DNA of 64,000 nt, from the NCBI RefSeq assembly GCF_038025025.1, contig NW_027117352.1:434001-498000 (forward strand). The letters are read 5' to 3'. The stretch is from Phyllosticta citribraziliensis. Taxonomy: Eukaryota. The position numbers were made by a program, and so were the translations under genes. Below, in pieces: positions 6,258 through 59,778 of this stretch; position 1 is the first letter of the stretch; the number at the start of each line of letters is the position of its first letter. The notes under the pieces are model-generated. The model was not told where the DNA came from and searched no databases. It saw nothing but the letters and a program-made list of their open reading frames with translations.

Positions 6258-6937
6258 CCTTCGACGTCGGTCGGTCGCAAAGGGCTCAGGGAGTAGGTAG
6301 TTGGGATCGGTCGGGTTGCGGAAGCGGGGTATCAGGAGAAGAGCAAAATGCAGGGCTCGTCGTAAAAGTGTAGAAAGGCAGACGAGAAAAGGAAACGGAC
6401 AGGATCGGCAAGGACGCGCGAGATGAGGAGCACGGAGGACGGAGGTAGGATGGGGTGGGTTAAGGCTGAGTGCAGTGGTTGTGTTGTCTTCCTTGCCGGT
6501 GGAGGGGCCGGGAGCGACGGACGGGCGACGGGGGGCGCTGTGTTGCGGCGGCTGTCTGGAGTGCTTCTAGACGACACAACAGCCTGGGACGAGCCGCGGA
6601 GACGAGGAGGCCGAGGAGCAGGCAGGTTGCGCAAGAGAGGTAGAGTGCAGGTAGAATCTGTAGAGATGGACAGGCGACAAACAGAGCGAGTGAATGGAGC
6701 GGAGGCTGGGGCTTAGCAGCAGCCGAACATGGACCAAAGACGGACAGACTGCGCCTCCGCCGGGCTCTGTTGGCGCTAGTCCCCAGTCGCGCGCGTCATC
6801 AATCTCATTGGATCTGCATTCTTGGACGTGTGTGCAACGAAAACACAGTCAAGTCCGCAACGACACTTCGCAACAAGCTCCCAATAAATCAATCTGCGCC
6901 CGGCCATTTCTCCAACTCCCCAAGCGCAGCCGCAAAC

Positions 6938-22500: not shown

Positions 22501-25500
22501 CTATCCTCTACCCCCCTCCGCGCCCACCCTCTCCACAACCTCCCTAACCAAGCCCACGCGATCAGTAATGAGCACATCAATGCCGGCCCTAACCTGCTTC
22601 TCGACGGCCTCCACGTCGCCATTCGCGCCGCCATAGCTGCCACAGCGTAGCCCCTTACTCTTGACGCGGCGAATGAGGCCCGGGCAGATGCCAAACACGT
22701 CGGCCGCGAAGACGACCCCGTCGAGCCCCCACTGCCGCGCGAAGCGCACCGCCGACCGCACGCTCTGCGCGCGCACATCGTGGTCTTCGACCGGCTGCTT
22801 GCCGCCGTTGGTGATGAAGAGGATGGGGAAGGCGCGCTGCTTGTGCGCCAGGAGGATGCAGACTTCGGGCGTGAAGGAGGTGAGGACGATGGGCCGGGGT
22901 GAGGGGGTGGAGCTGGAGCTGGTGCAGCGCTCGATGGTGGCCAGGATCGTGTCGATGAAGGTGTTGAGGTCGTGGGAGATGGGGCTGACGCCGGCGCCGA
23001 GGGCTTCGTGGATGCGTGGGTACTCTTTGAGCACGCGCGCGAGGCAGACGTTAGCGCTGTTGTGAAGAGATGGTATTCAGGGCGGGGACTTGGTCTTACT
23101 GATCTCGATGTTGAAGCCAACGTCTTCGGGGACCTCCAGCAGCGCTTCTTCCAGCGTCGCAAACGTGTCTTGGATGAAGTGTCCGCGCGTGTTTGGCTTG
23201 AAGCCTTTGGCCTGGTAGTCGACCGTGAATTGCATCCTGTCCTGCACCTCTTTTGCTCCCTTTTCCTCGTCTCCAGTCAGGGAGCGGGCTCGTGAACGTG
23301 CAAGAGGCGGGGTCTCATGTGGAGATTGCACTTTCCCAAGCATGGAGAGGGGATCACCTCGAGGTGATTGTACGTTGCTGGCGTACATGAACTGCGTGGA
23401 TGAGTGAGAAAAGCCCAGCCTTTCCCGGGTGATGTTGCTCACCTGTTGGTAGGTCAAGTCGTGGATCGGGATGTCTGTCCCAGATTCGCTCAAAGAAAAG
23501 TCGTGGAAAAGGACCGGCACCAAATCCCGGGTAACCTGGACGTCTACGAGCTCCATGTCAGTCCAAATTCATGCGGGGGCGAGGCAGATCTACCAAACTG
23601 TAGATGGTCAGTACACGTCCATAAGGTCTTTGAGATGGGAGACATACCTCGACATGGGTTGCGCCATGCTTTGCAGCGGAAAGAAATGACTAGCCGAATC
23701 ATGTCAGCAAAGATGGCGGAAGAGTCACAGATGCAAATTACCCCTATCGTGTTTTCCCCAAGCTGGAGATACTTTTCATTTCCGTGGTTTTGGCCATTAC
23801 CTGTAACCGTGTCAGTTTGGCGTTTCGCTTTCACTGTGAGTGTCGAAAGAAATGAGACTCTGGGTGCCGAGGGACGGCTGCCCCCTAAGCGCAGCTATAG
23901 AAGCAAATCAATGCTCTTAAGCGCTGCTGTGGTAGCAATGAATGCTCCCTAGGTGCACTCATGTTGCCAGGAGGTCTCAATTCTTTCGACGCCCACTGTG
24001 CTGTGAGCCTTGCGTACCTCTATGCCCATGTATCTGTACAGAATCCCAAGCATGCGATGGCGTGGGTGCACTCAGGCCCGGAAATGGATCGATCCTTACA
24101 TAAGTAAAGGAGATCGAACCGATGAAGCTCATCGTGAAGTTCGAGAGCATATTTACGGAATGCTCCCTGATCAAACTCTCCCGTTGCGAACCGAAGCAAG
24201 ATCGATCCTCGTGAAGAGTGGCTGCGCCGCTGCCAAGAAGCACACCCTTTGTCCCGTTTGTGGACGTGGCACCCCATAGTCTAAACTCGACGTACGCCCG
24301 GTCAGGGTCACGAGAAGAGAATGACATCGTGTGGCTAGCAATGTCGTCCAAAAATGGGTACCGGAATATGTGACTTTTTGACGATGATAGAATTTCAATT
24401 GAAAGAGCTGCATCAGTGAACTTTTGTTGGAGCATCTCGAAGTCTTTGTCCACAGCCCTCCTGTTCTGCTGCATCGGGCCAAGAGTGAGCACGAAGACAG
24501 CAGAGTCAGGTGGAAGATCCACTTTCTGAGCTTCTGGAACAACGGAATGGAGAAGCTTTGGGGTCTCTATAGCTTCGCTCGGACGAAGCTTGTCTGCGAC
24601 AACCAAGTGTCCCCTGTATGCAGCGTGCTCTTGTGCTGTCCAACCGGCGTGGTCTGTCCGAGTCTTGTCCGCGCCAGCCTGTATGAACAGCTCAATGAGT
24701 GGAAGATTTCCATTTGCGGACGCCACGAAGAGAGGTGTCCACTCTCGGACTGAATCCGGACGGTCTATGCAGACAATTTGGCGGCGCGCAATTTTCAACA
24801 GCTCTCGAACGTAGTCTTCACGTCCGAGCCGGGCCGCCACGTGCAAGGCGGTCTCTCCGTTGTAGCTGGACTGATGTGTGATATCGACATCCTTGGTTGC
24901 AATGAAATGGAACATGGCGTCATTCTGTAAATGGACCGCTTGCAGTAGAATACTGGAAAGGATTGATCTGAAAGTCGACTGGTCGGCGGAGGCTTGTTCT
25001 TTGAGAATGGAAATGTACAGCTGTACTATCTCAACATGGCCGGAAATGACGGCTAGCTGTAAAGGAGTGAAGCCTTCAAAGTCTTTGGTCATGATGAGCT
25101 TGGCGAAGGCGGCTGAGGAGCCTTTTTCATACCCTTGCGAGAACTTCTCCATCAAAGAGCACATTTCGAAAGAGCCGCTTTCTGAACAGCTATGAAGCGG
25201 CAGCCTCCCAACCATCTCATCCGGGTTCTGGAGAAAATGCTGTCCCCTGGGCCCAACGTGTTGTAGTAATTGATGGAACAAGTGTGTCTCTTCCTCAATC
25301 ACTTGGTACACGGATTGGCGCGAGTCTTTGGAGCCGCCAAGGGGCGTCGGACCCTCACAGATCACTTGAAGCAGGCTGTGTAGATGTTCTTCTTGGTCCC
25401 ACACTTTGTTTTCACAATATTCGCCTTGGTCATCTCTGTGTTCGCATGAACCCTCCAGACAATCTTCTTCAGGTATTTTGGCCACAAAGCCTGACTCAAG

Positions 25501-26446: not shown

Positions 26447-27025
26447 GTTTGTCAAGAGTTGGGGGAAGACGGACGGGGTGTTGGAAGGGACGTCTTAGTT
26501 TTCGGTGGTCGAGGTTGTTAGGTGTTCCGGATCCACACGATCTGCGTTTGCCGTGCCACTTCCACTTCCCCAGTTTTCTGTGTCTGCCGCCAATCACGTC
26601 CATTTGTTTCGCGCCTGGAGCTCGGGGTATGAACCAGCACGGTGAGAGTGTTGAAAGAGATGAGAGCTCTTGGCAATGTGTGTGCGCCTGGGGCACTGAT
26701 TCGCTCCTTGACATGTATTTAAAGAGATATTTTGAAAATCGAATGAAGAAGGATAGCGAAGCATTCGTTCGCTGCTTCACCTGTGCTTAGGAAGGGTAGT
26801 TGTTCATTGTCGCAGCCAGACCAGGGGGTTCCATTTCTTTCGACATCCACTGCCAGTACACGAGTGGGGGAGATAAGCCCGGGTGATACAAGGCTGGCAC
26901 GATTCGAAGCCTCCAACCTCGTGCGCGTACCAGACTCCAGCACCAACTTGACCTCCTGGCTCAACGCGACCATTTCGATTGATCATTGTTACCGGAGTTT
27001 CAAATCCTAGCCTCGGACTGCTGCC

Positions 27026-45945: not shown

Positions 45946-46654
45946 TCGACCACTGAAGCGAAGAACAAACGGACCAAGGTCTCTAAATCCTTCCGGACGA
46001 CTCGTCCCTTTTCTCTTTTCCTTGGTTTCTCCTCTTTTTCCTTCTTCCGCCTTTACTTTTTCTTCTCTCTCTTTCTCCTTGGGATCAATGTTTCTTTTTC
46101 ACCTTCTCTACAAAAAGTGATGTCTCTTTCACTGCAACAAAATGACGCAAGACCAAATGGAATGGAATGGACAGGCCATCGTGCAAATGGATGCAAGCAA
46201 GCAAGCAAAAAAAGAATAGAAAGAGCGCATGAAACGAACTCACATGCTACAACCAAATCCTCACACCGAGGCCGGCCTCGAATTGGATGGATGCGGTGGA
46301 TTCAGTGTACGTAATCATCGCGCCCTTCTCGCGCGAAGACGAATGTCAACGAGACAACAAGTATCAGGATTGTTGACGCCAGTTCTCAAGATGTGGACGT
46401 GACGCTAAACGACCGCTCCTTAGTTGTAGCCTCCTCCCTCTCCCCAAGTCTACATACAGTGCCTTCATTACGCCATCTATCGGCGTAAAAAGTCCCAACA
46501 GCCTGGGCTATCAGTGTCTCCCCTCTCTTCTGGGGGTTTCTCCTTGCTTGTCTTGTCATCTTCCAAGCAAGCTCCATGGCCTCATCTACAGGAGTGAATG
46601 TCGATGAGACGACGACTGCACATCCGCCTGACTAATGACACCGCGCCCATGTTT

Positions 46655-46720
46655 CCGTTCAGGAAGCAGTCATCTATTGTAGCTGTCACGCTCGGGGAGC
46701 AGTCGTACAGCGCGCCAATT
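46655..46720 (+). repeat. 33-bp repeat cluster 1 (2 units)
   Basis: Units start at 46655 and 46688, with core aggaagcagtcatc / ggggagcagtcgt. Confidence 0.75.
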
Positions 46721-46848
46721 GCGCGGACGCACCGAGGGGCAATACAACAAGCAGATCGCGGACGAGGTCCTCTTCACCACGACGCCGGATTGCTTCATAG
46801 CCCGAGAGAGCATGTTTCCGAGGCATGACGACTAGGCAGCATCCACGC

Positions 46849-48370
46849 ATGGATCTTGGATTCGCACCAAGAGACTAAAATGCCTACCAACAAAACAACG
46901 TTTTCAGCACTGGTTGCGCGAGTAGTGAGGCCGAGCGCTGCTTAACAGCATTAGATCTCAGCAAGCTACTCTACGAATCCGCACCAAGTGGATGGGACAG
47001 TGTCAAACTGGGGTACCACGATTTTCGGGAAATCTCAATTTCCCTCGTCTGCGTTGGAATGCTCCGGAAGTCACCCAAGGTAAAATCCGAGGCCATTAAG
47101 AAAAAGGACAATTACTAACCAATCTATTTATACAGCTCGTCTCAGTAATACCAATACGGATTGAGTAAGACTAAGCAGAGTCAACAGACCTGAACAACCC
47201 AGGGCCGCCAGAGTAATACGCCCTTCTCATGACGACTATTGACGACGAGACAATCGTTGTGCCTCTTCGCCTAATTCAATTTGGCTCAAGCCCAGTTTGG
47301 GATTATACCTATGATAGGCCCACAATGAACGCTGGACTGCGGTTCTCCAACGTCCTCGTACGACAGGCCAAGAATGGAGGCAAAGAATGGAGGCAAAGAA
47401 TGGAGAAAGCACATGGAGAAACTCAAGGGAGCGCCGGTCCTCATCTGTCAAGATGTTATCCCGCTCATGCGCCTGGCCAATGGCACTACGCCAATGTATA
47501 CTCCGAGAGTATTCAACCACCTGTTCGTCTTGAGTGTCGTGGAGAACCGCAACACCAATCGGGAGCCCACCGGTCCCCGATTCAGCGATCTCGGCATCCT
47601 CGTCGACGAGCCACTGGACGTGGCACACGGGCTGCAACAGACACAAGGCACTGCGGAGCTCAAGCTTTCTGAAACTCTCCCAGTGGATGACTTTGAAATC
47701 CAGGAACCTGCTGACTTCATCGTCCCGCAAATTGATACATCCGGAGCCATGGAGGAGATTGACGACGAAGTCGTCGACGCAAGACTCGTAAGGTTCACCG
47801 AGAATGATCACCAGACTGGCCACCGCAGAGAGGAGCGTACAGAGAGGTGAACTCCTCGAGGAACAGCAGGCCATCCGAGATGATGACGACGACGACGAGG
47901 AAAGTCCCAGCGAGGACGACGGCTCCGAAGAGGATCAGGATCAGCCCTTTAAAAGATCTTGGCCAGCTACGTAGGCCACACCGTCCCTGGTGCGCTCCAA
48001 TGAGCAAGGTCACGACGGGACAAACGTATACGCTGCGTATATCGACCGCCGCCGTGCCTGGCAGTCCGTCTGGAGCTGCTCATGTGGACGAGCAGAGGGC
48101 AGTCTCAGTTGGACCTTCCATCATCAGTGCATGCACAGCATGTTGCAGGACGCCGATTCGCTAGGCATGCAAGTTGCAAAGCTCGAACTTGAGCTGAACG
48201 CAGGCGGGCTCGACGAGGAATATTTTGACCACTTCACACAGTTGAAAGGTTGCGGGCTGTTGAGGGGGACGAGGGCGGGCTGATAGATGCTGAATTTCTA
48301 TCGCTACCCATGCCGTGCGCGCCTATCCCCGTCCAAGTACGGAATAACGATTCGCGACATCAAGAGTGCC
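46849..48370 (+). pseudogene. DEDDh exonuclease-family gene copy A (5' part, truncated after motif I)
   Basis: Coding-like frames with an intron at ~47080-47135 and a 13-nt duplication frameshift at 47370-47405. An acidic linker is followed by AYIDRRRA..EGSLS..QCM..LELELNAGGLDEEYFDHF..LIDAEFLSLPMPCAPI, homologous to copy B. Confidence 0.65.
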
Positions 48371-48406
48371 AGAGTTTGCGCACATCATTCTGCCGCTTGC
48401 ACGGGC

Positions 48407-48511
48407 ACTCCTAAGGAGCAGTCGTCCTCTATAACAGACACGCTCAGGGAGCAGTCATCCACTATGACACGCACGTCTAGGGAGCATTCATCCGCCGCAT
48501 CAGTTACGCCT
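48407..48511 (+). repeat. 33-bp repeat cluster 2 (3+ units)
   Basis: Units at 48407, 48440, 48473 and (48506). Confidence 0.9.
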
Positions 48512-48524
48512 ACAAGAGTGTCTG

Positions 48525-49512
48525 TCAGTGGTCACATGAACAGTGGTGGTATGCCTGGTCCTTCGTTTCAATCAACCTCTTATGTCGTACGTGCTCTTCA
48601 AAGGTGCGGTGTTCTGTCCTGGCGCCACCTTTGTAGATGGCCTTGCAGTGGCCACATCGAATCTGCTGATCTTTCGCTGGCATGTGACGCAGAGCATGGA
48701 AAAATCGCTTGCAAAGCGTCGACATCCCTAGGTCTTGAGCGAGAATTTGTGCATCCTCCAGAGACATCATCAGTCTGGATTGGGTCCTCGAGGACTTGAA
48801 CCTGTACGTGGTCGACTAATTTTCTTTGAGTCCGTTAAGGATGTTCTCGCTGGCGTAGTCTTTGACTTGAGCTTTACCGTTGGAGCGATAGAAACCCGCA
48901 GCGGCAATCATGCAGGCGACGAAGCAGCTCTTGCTATCAGCTTCAGCAGTGAGCCTTCGGTTGACGGGATCTTCGCCGGCGAAACGCATGCGGACGCTTT
49001 GAAAAGGCATGAAGATGACCTGTTCCCGGTCTTTGTCCAACGGTAGGCTAAGCGGTTCTCCGAATAGACGAACAAGATGCGGCTTGACAGCGTGTTTGTA
49101 TCCCTTGGGGAGGACGGGTTTCGGCACCAACGCTCTCTTCTTTGGTGGCGGTGTTGCTTGCTCGGGGGTTGTCTCTCTCAACTCGGCTGCGTCGTTGTCC
49201 TTTCGCTTCTTGCCCTTCGTTGTTGTTGGTTGGGTTGCAGTGGGCCCAATTTCCTGAGATCGTCTCACATTCGCCACAAGTCTCCCGCTCGCTGCCATCG
49301 TGATTTATGAAGTTCTGGAGGGGCTGCTCGTGGTAACCTGCCCTGCAGTACTTCATTTGCTGTGCCGGGCTTGAGACGTTGGAATCGCAGAATAAGCACA
49401 GTCCTGTGTCACGGGAGAGCCGATGAACAGCTCGAGGCTGCGCGCATTGCCTGCATTGGAAGAATTGTTGCCCAGAGTTGGACAGAAGTACGTCGGACAA
49501 TGTAGAAGTCAT
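48525..49512 (-). pseudogene. Tandem Cys zinc-finger + basic linker + APSES/KilA-N-like + C2H2-like protein (one frameshift, one TAG)
   Basis: CRQC..P..CLFC and C..H..P...F..TCGEC, then a 1-nt frameshift near 49268 into KGKKRK/PPPKKR. MIAAAGF...(TAG 48816)...MMSLEDAQILAQDLG resembles APSES helices, followed by CGHC..FEEHVRH. Confidence 0.6.
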
Positions 49513-49617
49513 TGGAGAAAAGCACAATGATGTATGTGGACAAGGATGCAGGGCGTTTCTGAAGTGGCGAAAGAAGATGGAAAGGAGTTCAGAGGTAGTG
49601 GTCTGCGAGGTGTTGAG

Positions 49618-49722
49618 GTGCCTTGGGAGCGGTCATCCGCGGTGACTGTCACGCCCAGGGAGCAGTCGTGGGCTGTTGTGGTCACGTATATGGGGCAGTC
49701 GTCCGCTACGTCAGTTACGCCT
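49618..49722 (+). repeat. 33-bp repeat cluster 3 (3+ units)
   Basis: Units at 49618, 49651, 49684 and (49717). Confidence 0.9.
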
Positions 49723-50153
49723 GTCCGCTGCACGAATAGAGAGTATTCACGTATTTGAGTTATCTACCCACATTCATATGCTCATCTATAAGCAGAGGGT
49801 AACTACACATGCCGGTCATTCTCCGGGGTAGGTGACATCTTTGCAGTGAGAGGGTAAACGGTGAGATGAGAGTGTGACTTGAAGAATTGAGCTGTAGATG
49901 AGTATTCGCAGAATTTAGGTGCGCTTGAAGAAGTTTTATGGGGATTACTTCACAGCGGCGTCATTCACTTTCGGTTTCACAGCCTTTCACAATCTTTCGC
50001 GAACTTAAAGTCTTGACCGTTCTTTCCCACCGCAGACCTTTCACGAAGTCCTCCCCACACAGTCCTGGAATTTTATCCTCACCCATCTTACATCTACAAC
50101 CATCCTCCTTCCAGCCAGACTCCTAAATTTTTACGACCTTTCCTATTACCAAG

Positions 50154-51846
50154 ATGGACCATAATACACTTGCAGCAGGTATTGATGAGTGGGCCAACGG
50201 AGCAAGGGACGATGACGGTTTCTACGATAGGCTCATTGAGCTCACCCAGGCGATTACCGACGTTTGGAACGTCGGACCCAGGCCCCGTCCAAGGCCTCTC
50301 ACCCCCGGTGCAAGTGTCGAAGAGGACGTGGAACCCACCACAAGCGCGGTGTCGTCGGCCGCTGATCCCCACCCACCAAGTCCTGCACGTGGACTGTCGT
50401 CTTCTTTCTCGCATGGAAGTCCTGCTCTGCCGCCTTCTCCGCAGCCTCTGGGGCTTTCGCCGTCTTTTCCAGAGGGAACACCAGCTGCGTCACCTCCACA
50501 ATCGCCCAAGCAGTCATCCCCAGAGCCTCCTCTGCCACCATCAACGCCGGCGCGTTCTGAACTCCACAGTACAACCCCAACTGCGGAGCCTCCACCATCA
50601 CCTACTCCCTCGGTCCCCCGCGCAAGCTCTGCGGACCAGTCCCTCCCACCACCGCCTCCCAAGACACCTTCCTCAAAGAAGAAGAATGGAAGACGCGCTG
50701 AACAAGTATGTTTAGCTCTTGATCACTCATTTATTTCTTCAGCTCACATGTACGTAGGGACCTACACACCAAGAGTTGACGCATTCGGCGACCGCCCTTG
50801 TCGCCTCGGCCAAGTTCCCCGAGTCATCCATGAGGTTTTACGACCAGGGCCCCAACATCGTTGACTGTTGTCGGCAAGTGCTGCAGAGCACTGCCGATAG
50901 CACAATTGCCGGCGAAGTCACTGCAGAAACGCTGAAAGATCTCAAGTTTACGCGGGATGTCCTCGTTTTCCTCTCCAAGATTTTTGGAGAGCCTGGTGTC
51001 AAAGCCGTGCGAAAGACCGTGGGAATGCTGCGCAACAGCACTGGACAAAGGCCAAATTTCCAGCCAGCCATCACCGAGAAGCCTTCCAACGTCCCGGCCG
51101 AGCTCCAGCTGTGCCTGAATCTGCTCCACGCCAACTTGCATCTATTTGCCGAGCTGAAAAATGCCGAGCTTTTGCCTTGCAAATCTGCGACACGCGTTGC
51201 CAGAGTCTGGCACCAAATCAAGTTGCGGCTCAACGCCAAAGACCCGGAATATGTTGAGTTCATCAAGAATGATCCTGACATGGTCATGCTGAAGAAGCAC
51301 AAGCCAAACCGCAATGACGACCATCTTTGCATGGGCTGGTTGGTCCTGTAGTACCACCCAGACTCGAGGAGAGATGGTATAATTGATCAAGACGAGTTTG
51401 ACCTAGTGCGAGACCGGATTGTGTACAAAATTGGGGCTGGAGAGCACCTGATGTGCTTTGAAGAGCGCCTCGGAGATGAAGTCTTCTTGTTGTTCGTTCA
51501 AGGATGGAAACGGCTGTGAGTTAATCCCACGATCATGAAACGCCTTCGTACTAATTAAAACAGCTTTCGCAAAGGCCGTCAACACATCACGCACGCAATT
51601 GTCAAGAACTTTCTGCTCCGCGCTTGTCCCGACCTTAGTACCCTCCTCGGTCGCCTTCGCCCGGTCCTCCAACAGCTGGATTTCGAAGGGGGCATTATGC
51701 CCACTTACGGTTTTGACGCCATTCATGCCCTCAAGGCTGACCCTCTCTCCCTGTACACGCTCATGCAGACTACCAACAACGGCCTTGAAGCCAATTCCTC
51801 TCACCTTGCCCTTGAGGACGGCACAGACGGCAACGACCATGCTTGA
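50154..51846 (+). pseudogene. Unknown-family protein copy 1 (3 exons, single in-frame TAG at 51349)
   Basis: ATG at 50154, introns ~50706-50757 and ~51515-51563. The frame stays open on both sides of the TAG to a TGA at 51844-51846. Homologous to 53337-54421. Confidence 0.72.
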
Positions 51847-52030
51847 ATGAGAGATGTTTGAGGTAATCGCGACCTGGCCTGCCGGGGCAGGCTACTGCAC
51901 GGTCCAAAACTCAGAGCTGAGGCGAGGGAGGTTATTGAAAACGGGAATGATGAATTCGAATCGCTGAATCCGTAGCGAAGACTGAAAGGAAGAAAGCTTT
52001 ATTTCCAGCCGCCTGAAATAAGATTCGTGC

Positions 52031-52190
52031 CAGTTACCCTCCTTCCTTGAACAAAGCCATGTGTTTTGAGCAAAAAGCGAAAATCGAGTGCCGAAGTCAG
52101 ACCCTCTCCTTCAGTAAAACCATGTCTTTTGAGCGAAAAGCCAAAAGCCAAAAGCACAGTTAGACCCCCCTCCCTCCTAAAGTAAAGCCG
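52031..52190. repeat. ~63-bp tandem repeat, about 2.5 copies
   Basis: aaagccatgtgttttgagcaaaaagc / aaaaccatgtcttttgagcgaaaagc, with repeated agt(t/c)a..ccctcc heads. Confidence 0.75.
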
Positions 52191-52245
52191 CCCCGAGAAA
52201 AATGTGGAAAGCAGACGCCGATTTCGTCACCCTCCTGCCATACGT

Positions 52246-53150
52246 CTAGGAGACTTGGCAAACCTTGACCATGATGTGGTACATCATAAGTGTATCGCCC
52301 GCGCTCGTGTGCGCAGTGATAGAATCTTTGCATTTGCAAAGGGCCTGGTGGACGTTTGACTGTGCAAATGACGCTTTCTTTTCCATTTTGCCTCTGAGTC
52401 GCTTGACGAGCATGAGCAAGTCGATTCACAGGAGCGGCGCCCCATCCACCCAGCTTCCGTAACCTAGGATATGCGTTGTGGAGTGATCGTAGCCGGCCTT
52501 GAGGACTTTCTGCCGTATGCTTGAGATTGTGACACCGCCAGACTTCCGTCGGTGTTTCTCGACCGTGGCTTCGAAGAGTTTCCGTGGCCCTACAGTTGCA
52601 AGCTTGGATAGAGCAAATTCGACGAGGCGCTCCTTGGTGGGCCATATTCAACCCAGGGGGCGTCGACAATGACCGTTCCGTCCATAATGTCACGGATTGT
52701 GACCTGCAGCAGAATGGGCGCATATGGAAGAGGCATCGCTAGAAATTCAGTATCTAGGAGCCACCCCTGGTGGCTTTTGCCGCCGTGTATCTTTTTCAGG
52801 AGCTTGAAATGGCGACTGTACTCTCTGTCGAGGTTGCTGGCTTTAAGCTCGAGCTCAGTCGAACTGGTCTCGATGCCTAAGTCTTGCGGGTCATGGTGTT
52901 GCAACATTTTTTCCATGCATTGGACATGTTGAGGGCAACTCAGGCTGCCTTCTTGCCGCTCGTAAGGGCAAAGGGCGACGAATTGGCATGCGCGTCGACG
53001 GTCAATGTAGCTCGCCTGTATGAATAATGGTCTCTCACTAAAAGGCGCCCACCAAGGGAAGTTCGGCCTCGCTGGGCACGTTGAATCTTCATCTTCTTCG
53101 CTTTCAGCCTCTTTAAGAGCTTCAGATGGAGTGCAGACTCCTCTCGTCGA
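52246..53150 (-). pseudogene. DEDDh 3'-5' exonuclease gene copy B (3' part)
   Basis: Motif I WLLDTEF (52746-52754), motif II-like GYGSWVD, IDLLMLVKRL, and motif III AHTSAGDT (52294-52311). Frameshifts and a TGA interrupt it. Confidence 0.72.
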
Positions 53151-53179
53151 GATAATAGCGTTCAGGATACCCTGGATAC

Positions 53180-53311
53180 AGCTACTGTGATGAACGACAG
53201 CTCCCTATGTGTGAATGTGATATTAGATGACTGCTCCCTAGGCGTAAGCGTCACAGTAGATGACTGCTCCCAAGGCGTAAGCGTCACAGCAGATGACTGC
53301 TCCCAAGGCTC
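53180..53311 (-). repeat. 33-bp repeat cluster 4 (4 units), bracketed by an 8-bp inverted repeat
   Basis: Units start at 53311, 53278, 53245 and 53212. AGCGTTCA 53157-53164 / TGAACGCT 53329-53336. Confidence 0.92.
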
Positions 53312-53336
53312 CATGTTATGATAAGAAATGAACGCT

Positions 53337-54421
53337 CGTGAACGTGGCAGCTGTTCGCATCCCAAAAAGTCCGTGTTCAGGAGCGATGCGTGGACATGCT
53401 GCGTGTGCCGGAGCAGGTGGAGACAATTATGCATCTCAACCGGGGCAGCGTCGGAGCCATCGGCCATGATCAAGTCACCTTGCCTGTAGCCGCTACTGCA
53501 ACGCAGCAGAGCCACGGTCTTTTGAAGGGACTTGATGCCCGGCATACCGAACACCTTCGTTGCGAAGATGAGAAAATCTCTGGCAAACTCCAGGTCCTTG
53601 AGCGTCTCAGCGGTCACCTTGCCAAGCAGATCTTCCAGCATGGCGCGACTGCATTCCACCACAGTCTTGCCGTCGTCGTAAAACCTGAGGGACGAGTTCG
53701 TGAACTTGGCTTTTGCAACCATGGAAATAGCATCTTGCCTCCACTTTTCGAGCTCAGGTGACTATGGAAATGTTAGCTAAATGAATCAAGAAATCACTTA
53801 ATAGTAGATTCCTACCTTTGGCTGGCTTGGAGGCTCGCTGGTACCAGGAGGGTTGTGAGGAGGTGAGGGCGTATGGGTTCCCAATGATGGAGTCTTGGGG
53901 CGTTGGGAAAGCTCGCGGTCCGATGGCGGGCCACGAGAAGGCGAGGGCGCAAAGCGATCATCAAACTCTGGAGTTGTGGGGCGATGGGACGGCTCGCGCT
54001 CTGACGGAGGGCTACGACGAGGCGAGGGCGCGGGGGGATCCAACTCGGGAGTCTTGAGGCGTTGGGACGGCTCGTGGTCTGGTGGAGGCGCATGGGGGTC
54101 GGGAACGCCGAAAGTTGCAGTATTTCCAGAGGGAGCGTGGCTCTTCGGAGAGGCGAAAGGGGATCCAGTCGTGAAGTGAGCGACAGAAGACGACGGGCTC
54201 ACGGATGAGCGCAGACGAGGCTCACTGGCTGGAAGTTCGTGGTCGACCTCCATCTCTTCCGTGTGGTCGCTCAGGTGAGTCGGGCAGCGGGGTCTGAAAC
54301 CCTTACCCCCGAGTTCCATCAGGTCATCATAAAGAATGTGGACCCTGCAGTCAAACTCGTTCTCATTGGTTCCATTGTTGATGCACGCTTCCATTTCCCT
54401 GATGGCAGAAAGGCGGTCCAT
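53337..54421 (-). pseudogene. Unknown-family protein copy 2 (3'-truncated)
   Basis: MDRLSAIREM.. N-terminus, Pro-rich repeats and a phase-0 intron at ~53762-53814. AKFTNSSLRFYDDG..GKVTAETLKDLEFARDFLIF aligns with copy 1. Confidence 0.72.
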
Positions 54422-54899
54422 TTTCCTGGTCGACGCGTTCGGAGGAGAGGGGAGGTTGATAATCGTGGGTTGGCAGTGAGTAATTTGAAGAGACGGTGAT
54501 GATGAGTGAGGATAGAGCAAAGAAAGAAAAGAAGAAAGTGGGAAATGCAAGCTAAGCAGTGGCATTCGACAATGGGAACCGAAGTGAATGATGGCGGGTC
54601 ACGGCGCTACGGCAAGGTCTGATGAGATGTTTTCCGCCGACCAAGTCGGTAGGCTTGAGGTTTGGAGAAGAGGCCTGCACCATCAACTCCGCTAACACCA
54701 AGCGCCAAGCGCCAAGCGGTGTCAAGAGCAATTGAAACTTCCGGCACTACGGCCGCGTCTAAGGAGCGTTCGTGTGCTGTGTATCAACAAGCCTGGCCTT
54801 CTTAAGGTCTGGAGGCCTATGTACACGTTAGCCGAAGAAACCAAGGGGTGATCAATAGCTAATCATACCTTGCCTACGCTTCCATTACTTTCCTTAGTA

Positions 54900-57110
54900 G
54901 TAGAAGGCCTCTTAGAAGGTATTGGTAGAGGGGATTTGCTAGCGGGAGTCTTTCCAGCATATCGTGAAATGCGTGCGATTGCATGGCACGGATACCTTCC
55001 ACGTCAAATAAACTTTGACGGTTTCTAATTGATGGACGGTTATTTCAACGGTGAAGGGAAGAGACACTTTGTCGGGGAAGAGGCTGGCACAGGTGTCGCC
55101 AATTGCCAAATATCTGGGCACTCCCTCCTCTGTATGTCCGTGGGCTCCGTAGAACAGCGTTGAGCCGCACTGCTCGCACGCTTCTTATCTATGCCTGCTG
55201 CTGTCCTTCTTGAAATAGCGTCGAAGGATCGTTTCAATTTTGCAGGGGGCCTTCTCGCTGGTCTCGATGGACTCATCGACGTATTCCAGGATTGCGTGTC
55301 GGTATGAAACCTGTCTGGGTAGCTTGTGCAGGCATTTCTGGCACCAGACAACATCTATCGAGGCAACGCACAGGTCTTTGAACCACTGGGCGACGTTTTT
55401 CCAGGCGTATGCGGCAGCGAACCGCTCGTCAGGCTGCGCGCCGTTCTCTCGGTTGTATGGTCCTCGCCGGAGCCGGTCACGGAATGTGTCAATGTCCTTC
55501 TGGATCATTGACGACATTGGAAGCTCTGCGAAAGCCTGGAAAGTTGTTGCCAAGTGCGAGGGGGACGTGGCCTGCATCTTGTGCAGCTCGAGGACGCAAG
55601 TGAGCTTGAGCAAGCAAGACGTCAATGTGGCAAGAGTTTCTGCCATCGTACTTTGGCCCGCTGGTGTTCGAGCTGAACTTCCACAGGGCCTGCCGCTGCT
55701 GCAACTGCCCCATGTCCCGCACCAGTTCTGCCAATTTTGTGGCTTGCCTTTCGACTTCGCCTTCGTTGGGGCATTTATCCGACTCTGGACTTGCAATGGT
55801 CAAGTCGACAAGTTTCGCCGTCGGTCTGACTGGTGAGGGCAGGCCGGCGAGGACTGTGTCCTCGTTGCCGCTTTCTACTGCCAGGGACTCGATGTCGTTG
55901 TGCGCTGGCATGGTCAATCCATGTGTGTTATACGAAAATGCTTTCTTGGGACTTACCTTGAAGCAGGGTCTTCCACACCAAATCCAAGCTGTCCGGGGAG
56001 GAGGAAATCCGACGGGGGATCTTTAATTGGGTTAGTCAAGTGATATCATGCTAGGAAATTTCTCACATACCTGTCCCAGAAATAGCTCTGGGCTTTCATC
56101 CACATCCTGCTTCTTTGGGGACTTGAAACTGTTTGCCTGCTGGAGTTCTCTTCTCCGAGCTGAACTCGACCGTCTTCCACAGCGACAATGGACTATTGAC
56201 CACCAAGAAACGCGAATACTATTCTGATGCCCCGCGCAGATCTGTCTTCGACATCCCTTCACCGACGCTTCTGGCGCTTGTAAGGGGACTTCAGGTTCGA
56301 AGAGAACCCTCCACGTGACGCTCAACGTAGCGGGGAGAACATCGTGTTCTCGAAAGCGTGTTGGCTTGGGGGGGTCTTGATGTCGAAATCGGGCTTTCAA
56401 AACGAATCTGGAACTCAATCGTAAGCATTCATTCGGATTGCACGCTTGTCAGTCTTACCAGGCTTCTTCTCGGGAGTCTCTGGGTCGGTTGTAGACGATC
56501 TAAAGCCATGCGATCTACCGGGCTTTGTGGGAGTCTCAAAGTTGAAGTTGAAGTCAATCTTCCCTGGGTGAGCGATCTTGGGGAACTTGTGCGGTCGACC
56601 TAGGCTATGCTCCTTCGGCTCTGGAGTGTGAAAGCTGCCATCACTGATTGGATCAGGGTCTTTGTCGGCGGGCTTTTTGGCATCAGGAGACTCAGCCTCC
56701 GTATCGGTCTGAATCCCCCGGGAGGCTTGGAATGCTCTCCAGTCAAAACCTGCCTCTTCAAGTACGGTGAGAGGCATGCCGTTGTCAACTGCAGCTAGAC
56801 GTTTCATCAGCCTCAAAGTTCTTGACTGGCGAAAACTACTCACTTTTGATGGCCATGGACAAGCAATTGCCAGCTTGCTCACTGGTCTTGAGATGAGAAA
56901 CCAGCCAAGTCAGGTCCTGGAGCGATGTGTTAGCAGAACTCTTTTTTCGGTGTATGAACCAACAACCTTCTCGAGGACCTCAAGCTTTTCCAACGCCTCG
57001 TGCTCCTTCCGGATCCTTTCCTGGTGAGCAAGTCTCTTGCTGTTGACATCGCTGGCCAAACTGGCCAGTTGCTCTTCCTTGGACATGCTTTTTTTCATTT
57101 CGCCGGCCAT
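54900..57110 (-). pseudogene. Spliced gene with N-terminal coiled coil and C-terminal USP/papain-like protease domain (degenerate)
   Basis: Introns ~56021-56070 and ~55905-55956 join the frames correctly. Cys-box-like GRNSCHIDVLL, two CxxC pairs (CQKC, CEQC) and His-box-like THFTICWK. Frameshifts, and stops at 55185 and 54939. Confidence 0.55.
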
Positions 57111-57339
57111 GATAGTGTGAGGGAAGTGAGGTCGAAGGTTGGAGGTAGAGGGCGTGAGGGCGTTGCTCGTGGCGGTCCAAGAGGCGATGCAAAGCTAGGG
57201 TGAATGGTGCAAAGGACATGGGAAGTTTGAGCAGCAAACAGTGTCGCTGAGCGACACGACCTACGGCCATTCACTTCCCATTCACTTCCGCCGCTCGACT
57301 CTGAGTCACCATCTACCCTTTCCCACTCGGCTCTGCAGC

Positions 57340-57437
57340 GCCCGCTCATCACCGCCCGCTCATCACCGCCCGCTCATCACCGCTGGCCTGCTTTTGCAAA
57401 CTCCCCAATCTCAACTCTCAACTCTCAACTCTCAACT
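57340..57437. repeat. Short tandem repeats (14-mer x3, 7-mer x4) in a divergent promoter
   Basis: gcccgctcatcacc x3 and tctcaac x4. Confidence 0.85.
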
Positions 57438-57502
57438 CCCACTCTTCCGCAAACCTTCCATCACCACACACTTACCGTCAACCCTTCGGAAACAACTACA
57501 AG

Positions 57503-57980
57503 ATGGATCGTCACACTATCAAAAACGCCATGAAGGAGTACGCCCATGGTGCGCGCAACAGGGAAGAATTCGAGGCCAGGATCCGTGACATTTTCGAAAT
57601 CATCAAGGAGGCTCGCGACAAGGGCCCCAAGCCGCGCTCCCCATCTCACTCGAGCAGCCCCGCGGCCAAGATGGAATCGGGCGCTGAGGGCTCCGCTGCT
57701 GGACCATCCGCGACCGAGACCCCCGTCGCCGACCAGGGCGCCTCCGCGCAGCCGACGACCTAGACGGTGGTGCGTCCCCGGACACAACGACGGCCAAGCG
57801 CCAGAGCGGCAGAAAGCCAAACTGAAGGTAAGCGTTGCTCGCCCCACCACTCTACTGTCTCGTTGGCTCACAGGTCTGCAGGTGCTGAACGGCGAAGATG
57901 GCAATGACGGCGCCGACGACGGTGTGTCCGCTCGCTCACGGTCCACGATCAAACACACGGCTCGACAGAGGCGAGGCTAG
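57503..57980 (+). pseudogene. Unknown-family protein copy 3 (N-terminal domain only recognisable)
   Basis: MDRHTIKNAMKEYAHGARNREEFEARIRDIFEIIKEARDKGPKPR aligns without gaps to copies 1 and 2. TAG at 57761 and a gtaagc intron donor at 57828. Confidence 0.62.
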
Positions 57981-58264
57981 AGGAAGGAAAGGCAGCTGGA
58001 AAGTGGAAAAAGACAGGTCTACAAGTGCGCATGGAAGGAGAGAAAACACACCATATCATCCGTAGCCCTCCTGTCCACACACAGCCCTCGGACAAAATCC
58101 ATGCCCTCTGAACCCAATCATCAAGAACAGTCCCCCGTCTCCAAGTGAAGAATGAACACGTACGCAGCTCCCTTCCCTCCCACCAACACTCAATGTACAA
58201 GAGCCATGATCGTCCTCCACCGCCGCGCCAGTATGTCTGCGGCTGCCAGTTCACGAGCGCCGTT

Positions 58265-58350
58265 TCGCCTGCAGAATGATCGCCTAACATCACAGTCACG
58301 TCTTGGGAGCTTTCAGTAGTCACAGCAGTCACGTCTTGGGAGCGTTCATG
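58265..58350 (+). repeat. 33-bp repeat cluster 5 (3 units)
   Basis: Units at 58265, 58298 and 58331. Confidence 0.8.
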
Positions 58351-58479
58351 GAACGGTCATCTCTCAGATTGGCTTCGAATGGAGTCTTCAGTTCTCTCAT
58401 CTGATTTCGTCAGGGAGGCAATGAAGAAGGACAATGAGAGAAATCCATCCCCTCCCCGACCCTGAAAAGGTTCTAGGGC

Positions 58480-59778
58480 CTAGGGGGACGGCGGGAGGGA
58501 AAGGAAACAGAAGGCCATCCCAAAGGCCGCGACCGAAAACAGACAAAAGAACAAAACAAAACGAACCAGGCGCGCTCCCCTCCTCCCCCCCACCTCCAAA
58601 AGACACTTGACGAGCCAAACGGCCGTCATCTCTCCTGCCGTGTCCGCGGCAGACGCAGCAACAAACGAGGCCAGCGAAATGCCGGCCAGCCGTAGCTGGA
58701 GAAGCGCCCGAGAGCGCAAGTCGGCCTCCGGGGAGACCAACACCAAGGAAGAGGACGGAAGGGGAAGAAATGCAAAAGCCAGCCCGAAGGCCGCAGCCGT
58801 GAAAAGACAGAAAACGAACAAAAACGAACGATCGACCTCCCCTACTCCCCCCTCCTCTTCCCCATCCACACGCCTCTTTCGCCACCAAACGGCGGCCTCC
58901 TCTCCTGCCGCGTTTGCGGAAAACCCAACAGCAAACAATGCCAGCGACACGCCGGCTAGTCGCAGCTGGAGAGCTGCTCGCGCATGCAATTTGGCCTCCT
59001 GGGAGACCAACTACCACCACACAGCACCGCAAGCTAACCACACCAGCAGCGCAGCGTAGAGCGTGGCCCAGGGGACAGAGTCCGGGGGACAAGACGCAAG
59101 CGTGGGCACGAGCGAGGTGCGCGGAACAAAAGGAGGGACAGAGAGCGAGCGAGAGAGCGCGGGCGTGGTGTTACTGTGGAGATTGTCAGTAAGCAATCTC
59201 AGCGTTGAACGGTGAGATTTGAATGTTGACTTACCTCTGCCAAAGCGGGAGCACCGCAAGGAGCGCGTAGGCTAGTTCCATGGTCCCGGCGACAGACATG
59301 TCGGCGGTGGGCAGGGCGCGGGCACAAGCGAGGAGAAGCAGCGAGGCTTGGTAGTATGGAGGCGGCGGCACCGAAAGCTCACTCCGTTAGGGAGGAGAAG
59401 GAGATGTTGGCAGATTGCCTGGCCAGCTGTTAGTTGGCTTCGCGAGACGAATGTGCAATAAACATACCGGTGACAGGGACGCCGCAAATGCTGCTGCGGC
59501 TCAGGCGCGGCCTTCCGGGAGACTCTCCCCCACCAAAAACCACCACCAACAATGCACACCGCCAGCGCGACGCTGAGTGCGACCCGGAGGGCCGTCAGGT
59601 AAGTCAAGCCAGCGCGAAGCCTGGCCGGACGCGCCCCCCGGGTGCGCTCCTGGGAACGTCGTTTCGAGAACTGCCAGCTACCATTAGCATGATGCCCAAG
59701 ATGTGGAAGTGGAGAACCATCTGTACTTACGGGCAGCCAAACTGGTAAAAACACGCAGGCCAAAATAGCCGCAAACAT
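58480..59778 (-). pseudogene. Putative polytopic membrane protein with an internal 270-nt duplication (5' end uncertain)
   Basis: Canonical introns ~59175-59234 and ~59428-59467, hydrophobic segments and an in-frame TAG at 59011. Duplicated unit VSxEAxLxxRAxLQLRLAGxSLA. Confidence 0.4.

Follow-up and report, generated by a model that had tools for sequence, protein, structure and literature searches.

We analysed a 64,000-nucleotide stretch of the genome of Phyllosticta citribraziliensis, a fungus reported solely as a citrus endophyte (PMC9073689). Proteins of the stretch match this species at 99-100% identity. This stretch, referred to as the window, corresponds to C15:434001-498000 of a 31.35-Mb genome in 22 contigs. 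Between 46.4 and 58.4 kb it holds an island of broken genes with five arrays of tandem 33-bp units. We found that these five arrays are internal tandem repeats of a non-autonomous element, a family of MITEs (miniature inverted-repeat transposable elements), here called family A, and we hold this assignment with high confidence. Overall, we consider it probable (roughly 0.75) that the arrays are family-A relics that were trimmed at their ends within a dispensable pseudogene island. The odds of the explanations weighed below overlap, as ordinary deletion and one further rival accept the MITE origin.

Family-A origin of the island arrays

The arrays were compared with an nhmmer profile built from 55 family-A elements that have both terminal inverted repeats (TIRs); no island copy was among them, and the reversed window served as control. 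Each of arrays 1 to 5 was matched with E values from 9.5e-19 to 1.4e-5, while the best match in the reversed window had an E value of 5.6. The family-A sequences in the window are listed below, with model positions and E values from this profile.

46648..46724, plus strand: array 1, two 33-bp family-A units, no TIR (model 38-114, E 3.8e-8)
46378..46429, minus strand: extra weak array facing away from array 1, one to two units (unit score 17.3 at 46429; E 0.14, alone not significant)
48384..48512, plus strand: array 2, three units and a partial fourth, no TIR, adjoining the 3' truncation of the broken gene DEDDh-A (E 6.8e-10 and 1.4e-5)
49619..49721, plus strand: array 3, three units, no TIR, intergenic, ~430 bp before the gene orphan-2a (model 46-148, E 2.6e-12)
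53166..53337, minus strand: array 4, four units and a degenerate fifth (model 43-157, E 9.5e-19; model 54-134, E 4.2e-9)
about 58263..58360, plus strand: array 5, two or three units without a TIR, with its end at a long terminal repeat (LTR) fragment (E 3.8e-6)
54718..54780, plus strand: one-ended MITE remnant with an eroded left TIR (model 8-27), spacer and first unit (model 8-70, E 1.3e-7)
23832..24000, minus strand: near-intact family-A MITE of 169 bp with both 27-bp TIRs and three units; its 4-bp flanks differ at one base
26638..26854, plus strand: second, older family-A MITE, both TIRs eroded (E 1.3e-28)

The preliminary description, made from the sequence of the window, had located five arrays with a strict 33-bp period. 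All five are real, and the independent profile recovered them at the same places; overlooked were the remnant at 54718-54780, the weak array at 46378-46429, the fifth unit of array 4 and the two MITEs at 23832-24000 and 26638-26854. The period of 33 bp predominates, with 92 of 101 adjacent unit pairs less than 40 bp apart showing it (units from loci picked by TIR), but it is not strict, since a dimer pattern spaced by 32 bp also occurs genome-wide (28 matches against 5 in the control). All nine window matches of the two-core (dimer) pattern fall within 46.6-58.4 kb, where 0.21 would be expected per 12 kb from the genome-wide rate. In the profile alignment, array 4 still has the right-hand spacer of family A, as far as the inner border of the TIR that it has lost. 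Apart from the remnant at 54718-54780, no further TIR was detectable in the island by a TIR scan and the two-TIR profile. A unit matrix that included island units gave family A a higher score than family B (described below) in 18 of 18 cases, a partly circular comparison for which the two-TIR profile is the independent test.

Across the genome contigs, 33-bp dimers were found 552 times, compared with 9 times in the reversed control. The MITE at 23832-24000, a sixth array that apparently lies in an intron of a GDE1-like gene, is bracketed by an inverted 27-nt repeat. A search with this repeat gave at least 78 matches (40 of 62 candidates scored), and the family-A TIR with up to three mismatches was found 159 times, against none in the control. 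Family A has a common plan: a 27-bp TIR starting with CACAGTG (ends CAC...GTG), short spacers and one to five head-to-tail 33-bp units in the same orientation. The first unit lies about 42 bp from the left end, and the right TIR usually follows 13 bp past the last unit. Copies with two TIRs (n=55) are 115-266 bp long.

Exact 4-bp target-site duplications (TSDs) flank 14 of 32 TIR pairings, compared with a shuffle mean of 0.78 and a maximum of 5; among these 32 are two long pairings and an alternative one. This was replicated in a second set of 40 loci chosen by TIR alone (10 of 25, against 0.55 shuffled). Exact duplications of 3 bp were rarer in the two sets (4/32 and 2/25), and exact 5- or 6-bp duplications were absent from both (0/32 and 0/25). 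Pooled, the 4-bp TSD is exact in 25 of 55 cases and within one mismatch in 35, with 71% G+C. Two longer pairings of family-A TIRs in L067 (787 and 1115 bp) were rejected, their TSDs not matching. Family A thus shows the three MITE features looked for: TIRs, a TSD, and short, non-coding, dispersed copies in high number. The suggestion in the preliminary description of a small non-autonomous element is borne out by the TIRs, their 159 matches and the 4-bp TSD.

Most copies are old, with a median nearest-neighbour identity of 76%. One pair, at different loci and each with its own TSD, is 98% identical, which suggests that the mobilising enzyme was active fairly recently. The copies are locally clustered: 16 of 72 arrays have a neighbouring array no more than 6 kb away, compared with 2.6 expected (first 100 of the 552 dimer rows, contigs C1-C14, adjacent rows merged by eye). 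Loss of ends is also frequent. Among 98 arrays listed for the fetched loci, a tally of mixed ascertainment, both TIRs were seen in 36, one in 27 and none in 35. The partner TIR was absent by scan in 15 of the 40 TIR-picked loci, although two of these (L157, L159) appear to be full-length copies whose TIR carries an indel. Long TIR-less arrays occur at L213 4872-5070 (G000:C10:376.0-376.3 kb; 7 units) and at L212 4904-5250 (~10 units). Among metagenome contigs, the exact TIR had no match.

The core of the unit, GGAG-CA(T/G)-TC(A/G)T, resembles the inner ends of both TIRs. In the alignment, the left TIR has GGAG-NNN-TCAT in inverted orientation at its inner end, the right TIR has it in register and one base shorter, and the 33-bp register of the units continues into the right TIR. 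Because of this resemblance and register, the units are probably amplified subterminal sites for the mobilising transposase. DNA has 10.5 bp per helical turn, which sets 33-bp units about three turns apart. That they are sites for a binding protein, as the preliminary description proposed, is plausible. In the Emigrant elements, a transposase has been shown to bind subterminal MITE repeats (PMC1636448).

Junctions between arrays and broken genes

The genes of the island that bear on the arrays are the following.

47115..48386, plus strand: DEDDh-A, broken by stops and frameshifts; has the N-terminal domain and the first exonuclease motif but lacks the C-terminal part
52270..53012, minus strand: DEDDh-B, exonuclease domain, frameshifted, without the N-terminal domain
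50154..51846, plus strand: orphan-2a, the longest orphan-2 copy in the window, with paralogs on C5 and C11
53342..54421, minus strand: orphan-2b, 3'-truncated at array 4
57503..57763, plus strand: orphan-3, its N-terminus alone similar to orphan-2b

It had been proposed that the arrays sit where genes are truncated or joined. We found this to hold within ~30 bp for arrays 2 and 4, and not for the other three. On the 444-position profile of the DEDDh family, the paralogs on C4 and C5 reach position 393 and DEDDh-B position 407, and DEDDh-A stops at 270. Its end, TIRDIKSARVCAH, is followed by the profile match of array 2 from 48384, with a junction gap of ~0-27 bp, so that array 2 does begin just past the end of DEDDh-A homology. 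At array 4, which starts at 53337, homology of orphan-2b ends at 53354 (against the C5 paralog) or 53342 (against orphan-2a), leaving a gap of 4-16 bp. On its other side, firm homology of DEDDh-B is found only from 53012, ~150 bp away; array 4, as had been said, joins the truncated orphan-2b to DEDDh-B. The gaps at arrays 2 and 4 are too short for the 42 bp of TIR and spacer, which indicates that the deletions started within the element and extended into the adjacent gene. Deletions beside arrays, as had been suggested, are thus supported by flush junctions at these two places.

Arrays 1, 3 and 5 and the remnant at 54718 lie away from such gene-truncation junctions. Array 5, said to follow the truncated orphan-3, is more than 600 bp beyond the homology of orphan-3 to orphan-2b. 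The case for array 1 as the left edge of the island is weaker than had been stated, since it is contained in a spliced contig (run X2) that continues from a UNG-like gene to 46840. This spliced contig covers 45835-46840 on the plus strand, with an intron at ~46307-46423, and passes through array 1. Contigs from a relative span array 1, and at array 5 a relative's contig (run X3) carries one extra 33-bp unit (33 letters, 58271/58262). The contigs of run X2 give no expression level, the parts of the island that they leave uncovered carry no meaning, and the depth that they show over arrays 2 and 4 probably stems from copies at other loci.

Proposed origin of the trimmed arrays

In the reading that we prefer, family A is a cut-and-paste element that inserts in local clusters and often loses one or both ends. 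Old copies in the island were trimmed at both ends and, at arrays 2 and 4, by a deletion that began within the element and reached into the gene. The likely cause is aberrant excision, or cleavage at a single end, with subsequent resecting repair, and the lesions may have persisted because the island genes are dispensable and lineage-specific. Closely spaced insertions with loss of one end (PMC6379663) and excision that deletes flanking DNA (PMC4423477) have been described before. We lean only slightly towards this transposase-linked trimming as the mechanism of the deletions.

Several points weigh against the reading as a whole. All 40 TIR-picked loci are MITE-sized or one-ended, and an autonomous partner was not found among them. 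Searches of the genome for the transposase domains PF02992 and PF12940 were blank, and so were their controls, so that they have no bearing on absence. The flanking deletions are read from junctions in this one genome. Excision normally leaves the ends and removes the middle of an element, which is the reverse of the island arrays, and two separate trimming events are therefore needed for each array. Moreover, ordinary deletion bias in unselected DNA could yield the same picture, and a site serving purely a family-A transposase leaves unexplained why family B has the same core between unrelated TIRs.

The serious rival for the trimming step accepts the MITE relics and attributes the deletions to ordinary spontaneous deletion in dead DNA, without a transposase. 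Microhomology between repeats would then place the arrays at junctions, together with the fact that only the conserved core is still recognisable. End loss is indeed frequent genome-wide, deletion ends vary, truncation adjoins just two of the seven island remnants, and TIR-poor arrays are found beside ordinary genes too. However, at two of the four gene breakpoints the edge of an array is no more than 30 bp away, for which we estimate a rough chance of ~0.03 (14 edges in 12 kb). In the DEDDh paralog on C4, the match to the N-terminal domain stops at 6541, close to the start of an array at 6504, and several one-ended copies break, judged by eye, at the inner TIR. We regard ordinary deletion as possible but the less probable cause.

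The phased core shared with family B

Some TIR-less arrays elsewhere have spacers that differ from those of family A. One such spacer gave 52 matches, 25 of which were fetched as loci (L175-L199, e.g. G000:C13:181080-181319 and C7:1576357-1576534), and these led to a second family, family B. Its members are ~110-260 bp long and have a TIR of ~35 bp that is unrelated to that of family A, with the 33-bp phased core in common. The units of family B are spaced by 33 bp in 30 of 50 pairs and by 34 bp in 13 of 50. Its unit consensus matches that of family A at 20 of 33 positions; the agreement in the core is in part a product of the way in which units were selected. One 111-bp element of family B has no array. 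The TSD of family B may be 3 bp (GWC-biased), as exact 3-bp duplications occur in four of eight cases, compared with 2.0 shuffled (p 0.10). A 1.7-kb pairing of family-B TIRs in L123 was resolved into two separate small elements.

Common descent of the array in the two families is the simplest account, and a binding factor shared by both is the bolder prediction. Taken further, the 33-bp-phased GGAGCATTCAT array would be a portable cis-module bound by one shared factor, such as a transposition enhancer or an anti-silencing protein, and used by two MITE families with unrelated termini. It would be prone to breakage after loss of the TIRs and would shuffle gene fragments in islands. Family A would then also point to an undescribed Chapaev/RAG-like transposase of ascomycetes with ends like the heptamer of the recombination signal sequence (RSS) and 4-bp TSDs. 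We consider this extended proposal unlikely.

The arrays and the gene families of the island

The island might instead be a decayed large element with cargo, of the Pack type or a giant one, and the arrays its internal sites, either inner ends left by composite capture or targets of a VANC-like protein. The density of remnants favours this view: it reaches 4.96 per 10 kb in the island, about tenfold the array density in the rest of the window, and 5.0 at the DEDDh paralog on C4, a locus chosen by protein homology and independently of arrays. Elsewhere it amounts to 1.2 at C5:705-755 kb, 0.67 around the orphan-2 paralog on C11, 0.43 in window positions 1-46000 and 0 in both flanks of the C4 locus. 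At C4, two arrays that are 92% identical and in direct repeat stand on either side of a fragment of orphan coding sequence within the DEDDh gene. Across Pezizomycotina the DEDD family has a patchy distribution, the C5 region carries SNF2, two AAA_11/12 helicases and a His-Me finger, and phased motif repeats are known as anti-silencing targets (PMC5735166).

Against a cargo element speaks that no outer TIR pair of family A or B was found around 46.4-58.4 kb, where erosion is possible, and that no DNA-level copy of the island was found elsewhere in the genome. The paralogs keep different gene company, and a collinear, RIP-like copy of the DEDDh gene on C5 (RIP, repeat-induced point mutation) has no detectable arrays; a RIP-tolerant scan of the AT-rich C5:970-1000 kb gave no TIR or unit above control. 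A donor for the C4 fragment was not found (one fragment searched, self-match only), and orphan-2 has no fold match. A search for a DUF3435 captain of Starship elements (PF11917) was blank, and since the control was blank too, absence is not shown. Moreover, 13 arrays elsewhere were chosen because a TIR is missing at one end or at both; no DEDDh or orphan-2 homologue lies within ~5 kb of any of them, and an SNF2 fragment lies near one. Their neighbouring open reading frames (ORFs; 30 of 222 scanned) include ordinary enzymes and a permease. The idea that the arrays are special to the island families is not supported, their dimers being found 552 times genome-wide. In our view the cargo explanation is doubtful.

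The loci compared here have some features of their own. The broken DEDDh paralog at G000:C4:1444.4-1448.9 kb (L118 2400-6850) is interrupted by ~1.5 kb of orphan coding fragments, with TIR-less arrays between, and ends in a long purine-rich simple repeat. The region G000:C5:703-755 kb (L123-L128) holds a paralog of orphan-2 and numerous Pfam-less ORFs besides SNF2 helicases, the two AAA_11/AAA_12 helicases and the His-Me finger, and looks like decayed mobile cargo. The RIP-like DEDDh copy lies in C5:970-1000 kb (L120-L122), a stretch of 30 kb or more whose G+C content is ~30% and whose TpA/ApT ratio is high.

It is improbable that the arrays are filler DNA, copied during break repair from a nearby or abundant MITE template, so that TIRs were never present. 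Flush junctions and absent TIRs would be expected of filler, and the lengths of 60-170 bp come near its range of 1-123 bp (PMC4423477). However, a TIR remnant is kept at 54718-54780 and the right spacer in array 4, and the island units are 58% identical to each other, compared with 62% among MITE units, so that a local template is not evident.

That the arrays are fragments of an 11-amino-acid coding repeat, the last of the explanations, is already largely refuted and very improbable: although one frame in the sense and one in the antisense direction are open for the most part, arrays 2 and 4 continue in frame from upstream ORFs and a seven-unit array on C10 lies within an open frame of 303 codons, the 173 units from TIR-picked loci show no codon periodicity (entropy by codon position 1.00/1.04/0.96), no avoidance of stops (units with stops in the two open frames 11 against 10.5, and 7 against 7.1, expected from column shuffling) and no lowered pN/pS, which is highest of the six frames in the open sense frame (0.87 against 0.66-0.76), while TIRs with TSDs enclose the units and array 4 is passed over in the NCBI model of orphan-2b.

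Neighbouring genes and other features

The predicted structure of a DEDDh family member, P0004, matches REXO2 and ISG20L2 in a fold search (E about 8e-4). This supports a DnaQ-like/DEDD exonuclease fold for the neighbouring genes and agrees with the label given in the preliminary description. Sequence searches of the family against Pfam and PDB gave nothing significant, and Pfam was blank for 13 DEDD relatives and for the ORFs of the island. The fungal proteins P0004-P0019 form a Pfam-less family with an N-terminal domain, a Cys/His cluster and the DEDD exonuclease fold, patchy in Phyllosticta and Aspergillus. A fold model of orphan-2 (predicted local distance difference test, pLDDT, 61) had no fold match.

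P0001 and P0003 are public gene models that fuse separate broken genes across array-containing intervals; P0001 joins two of them across array 4. Gene models of Phyllosticta may therefore run into or across these relics, and annotators should be warned. P0003, from P. citrichinensis, matches the N-terminal part of DEDDh-A and orphan-2a in the same order, mostly at ~70% identity, which shows that the island is old.

Further features stand apart from the arrays. An 81-bp tandem repeat (~2.5-3 copies) at 53847-54088, in the proline-rich part of orphan-2b, is apparently a coding repeat and unrelated to the 33-bp unit. On the minus strand, 55040-57111 holds an orphan gene of several exons that has Cys pairs close to its end. 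Atlas gave only a weak lead for it (integrase SAM-like, 0.88), and in a relative's contig a shorter middle part links 56186 to 57289. A further weak Atlas lead is DNA polymerase B (0.90). At 58575-59011 lies a direct repeat of 167 bp, 71% identical and 270 bp apart. The LTR fragment next to array 5 is unrelated to the arrays:

58361..58412, plus strand: LTR fragment (3' end), immediately following array 5

This LTR family has at least 12 further copies, many of them AT-shifted as by RIP; on C5, a 1335-codon ORF that appears copia-like by eye lies between two of them.

Comparison with known systems

Overall, the arrays are relics of a fungal MITE family that appears undescribed, and their presence is a real and mostly ordinary phenomenon. 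Our literature searches, which covered result lists and the openings of abstracts, found no published description of family A; Repbase, subscription journals and supplements, which lie outside their coverage, may hold one. Two features set the family apart: Chapaev-type ends in an ascomycete, and a phased core common to two families with unrelated termini. MITE families of Zymoseptoria have TSDs of 2, 5-6 or 8-9 bp (PMC4522978). The Emigrant/Lemi1 MITEs (PMC1636448) are likewise short and non-coding, with TIRs, a TSD, high copy number and internal repeats related to the TIR. However, they bear the signature of another superfamily, whereas family A is filled by a 33-bp array of variable unit number, for which binding is suggested by analogy.

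The 5'-CAC...GTG-3' termini of family A are those of Chapaev elements (PMC4079192), and its 4-bp TSD falls within the 3-4 bp given for Chapaev (PMC4079192) and the 2-5 bp given for CMCT (PMC12730594). Both DNA hallmarks of Chapaev are thus present, and family A works in the manner of CMCT elements. The class is marked by a DDE transposase bearing the motifs C(2)C and H(3-4)H, and family A is known from its DNA ends alone. We therefore do not assign it to Chapaev, because a transposase was not found by searches that included no Chapaev-specific profile and were blank together with their controls. The fungal CMCT lineages named in the accessible part of PMC12730594 have TSDs of 3 bp (EnSpm), TA (ESTA) or 2-3 bp (Plavaka), and the accessible part of PMC5751038 places CMC expansions outside Ascomycota and does not mention 'Chapaev'. 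EnSpm/CACTA was rejected for family A, the 3-bp TSD of fungal EnSpm being found in 4/32 and 2/25 cases against 14 and 10 at 4 bp. A family with CAC...GTG ends and a 4-bp TSD in a Dothideomycete falls outside these fungal CMCT lineages. The recent mobilising enzyme, suggested by the 98% identical pair, could be sought in related genomes.

Family A also recalls Transib and RAG (PMC1131882), since the first seven bases of its TIR are the RSS heptamer CACAGTG and its targets are G+C-rich (71%). The TSD is 4 bp and not 5 bp, and the 27-bp TIR is shorter than the 38-bp terminus of heptamer, spacer and nonamer. Transib was rejected, with exact 5-bp TSDs in 0/32 and 0/25 cases, and a search of the genome with the RAG1 profile was blank, as was its control.

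With Pack-CACTA elements (PMC6379663) the island shares closely spaced insertions, frequent loss of ends and gene fragments between remnants, but no outer TIR pair, mobilised composite or donor gene was seen for it. The VANDAL/VANC system (PMC5735166) offers a parallel to the phased core, a short motif tandemly multiplied in one orientation and present also in an unrelated element family. Its hosts here are tiny MITEs, an element-encoded binding protein was not identified, and the likeness is one of sequence. The phased core of the two families may serve as a concrete DNA bait for the protein that binds it.

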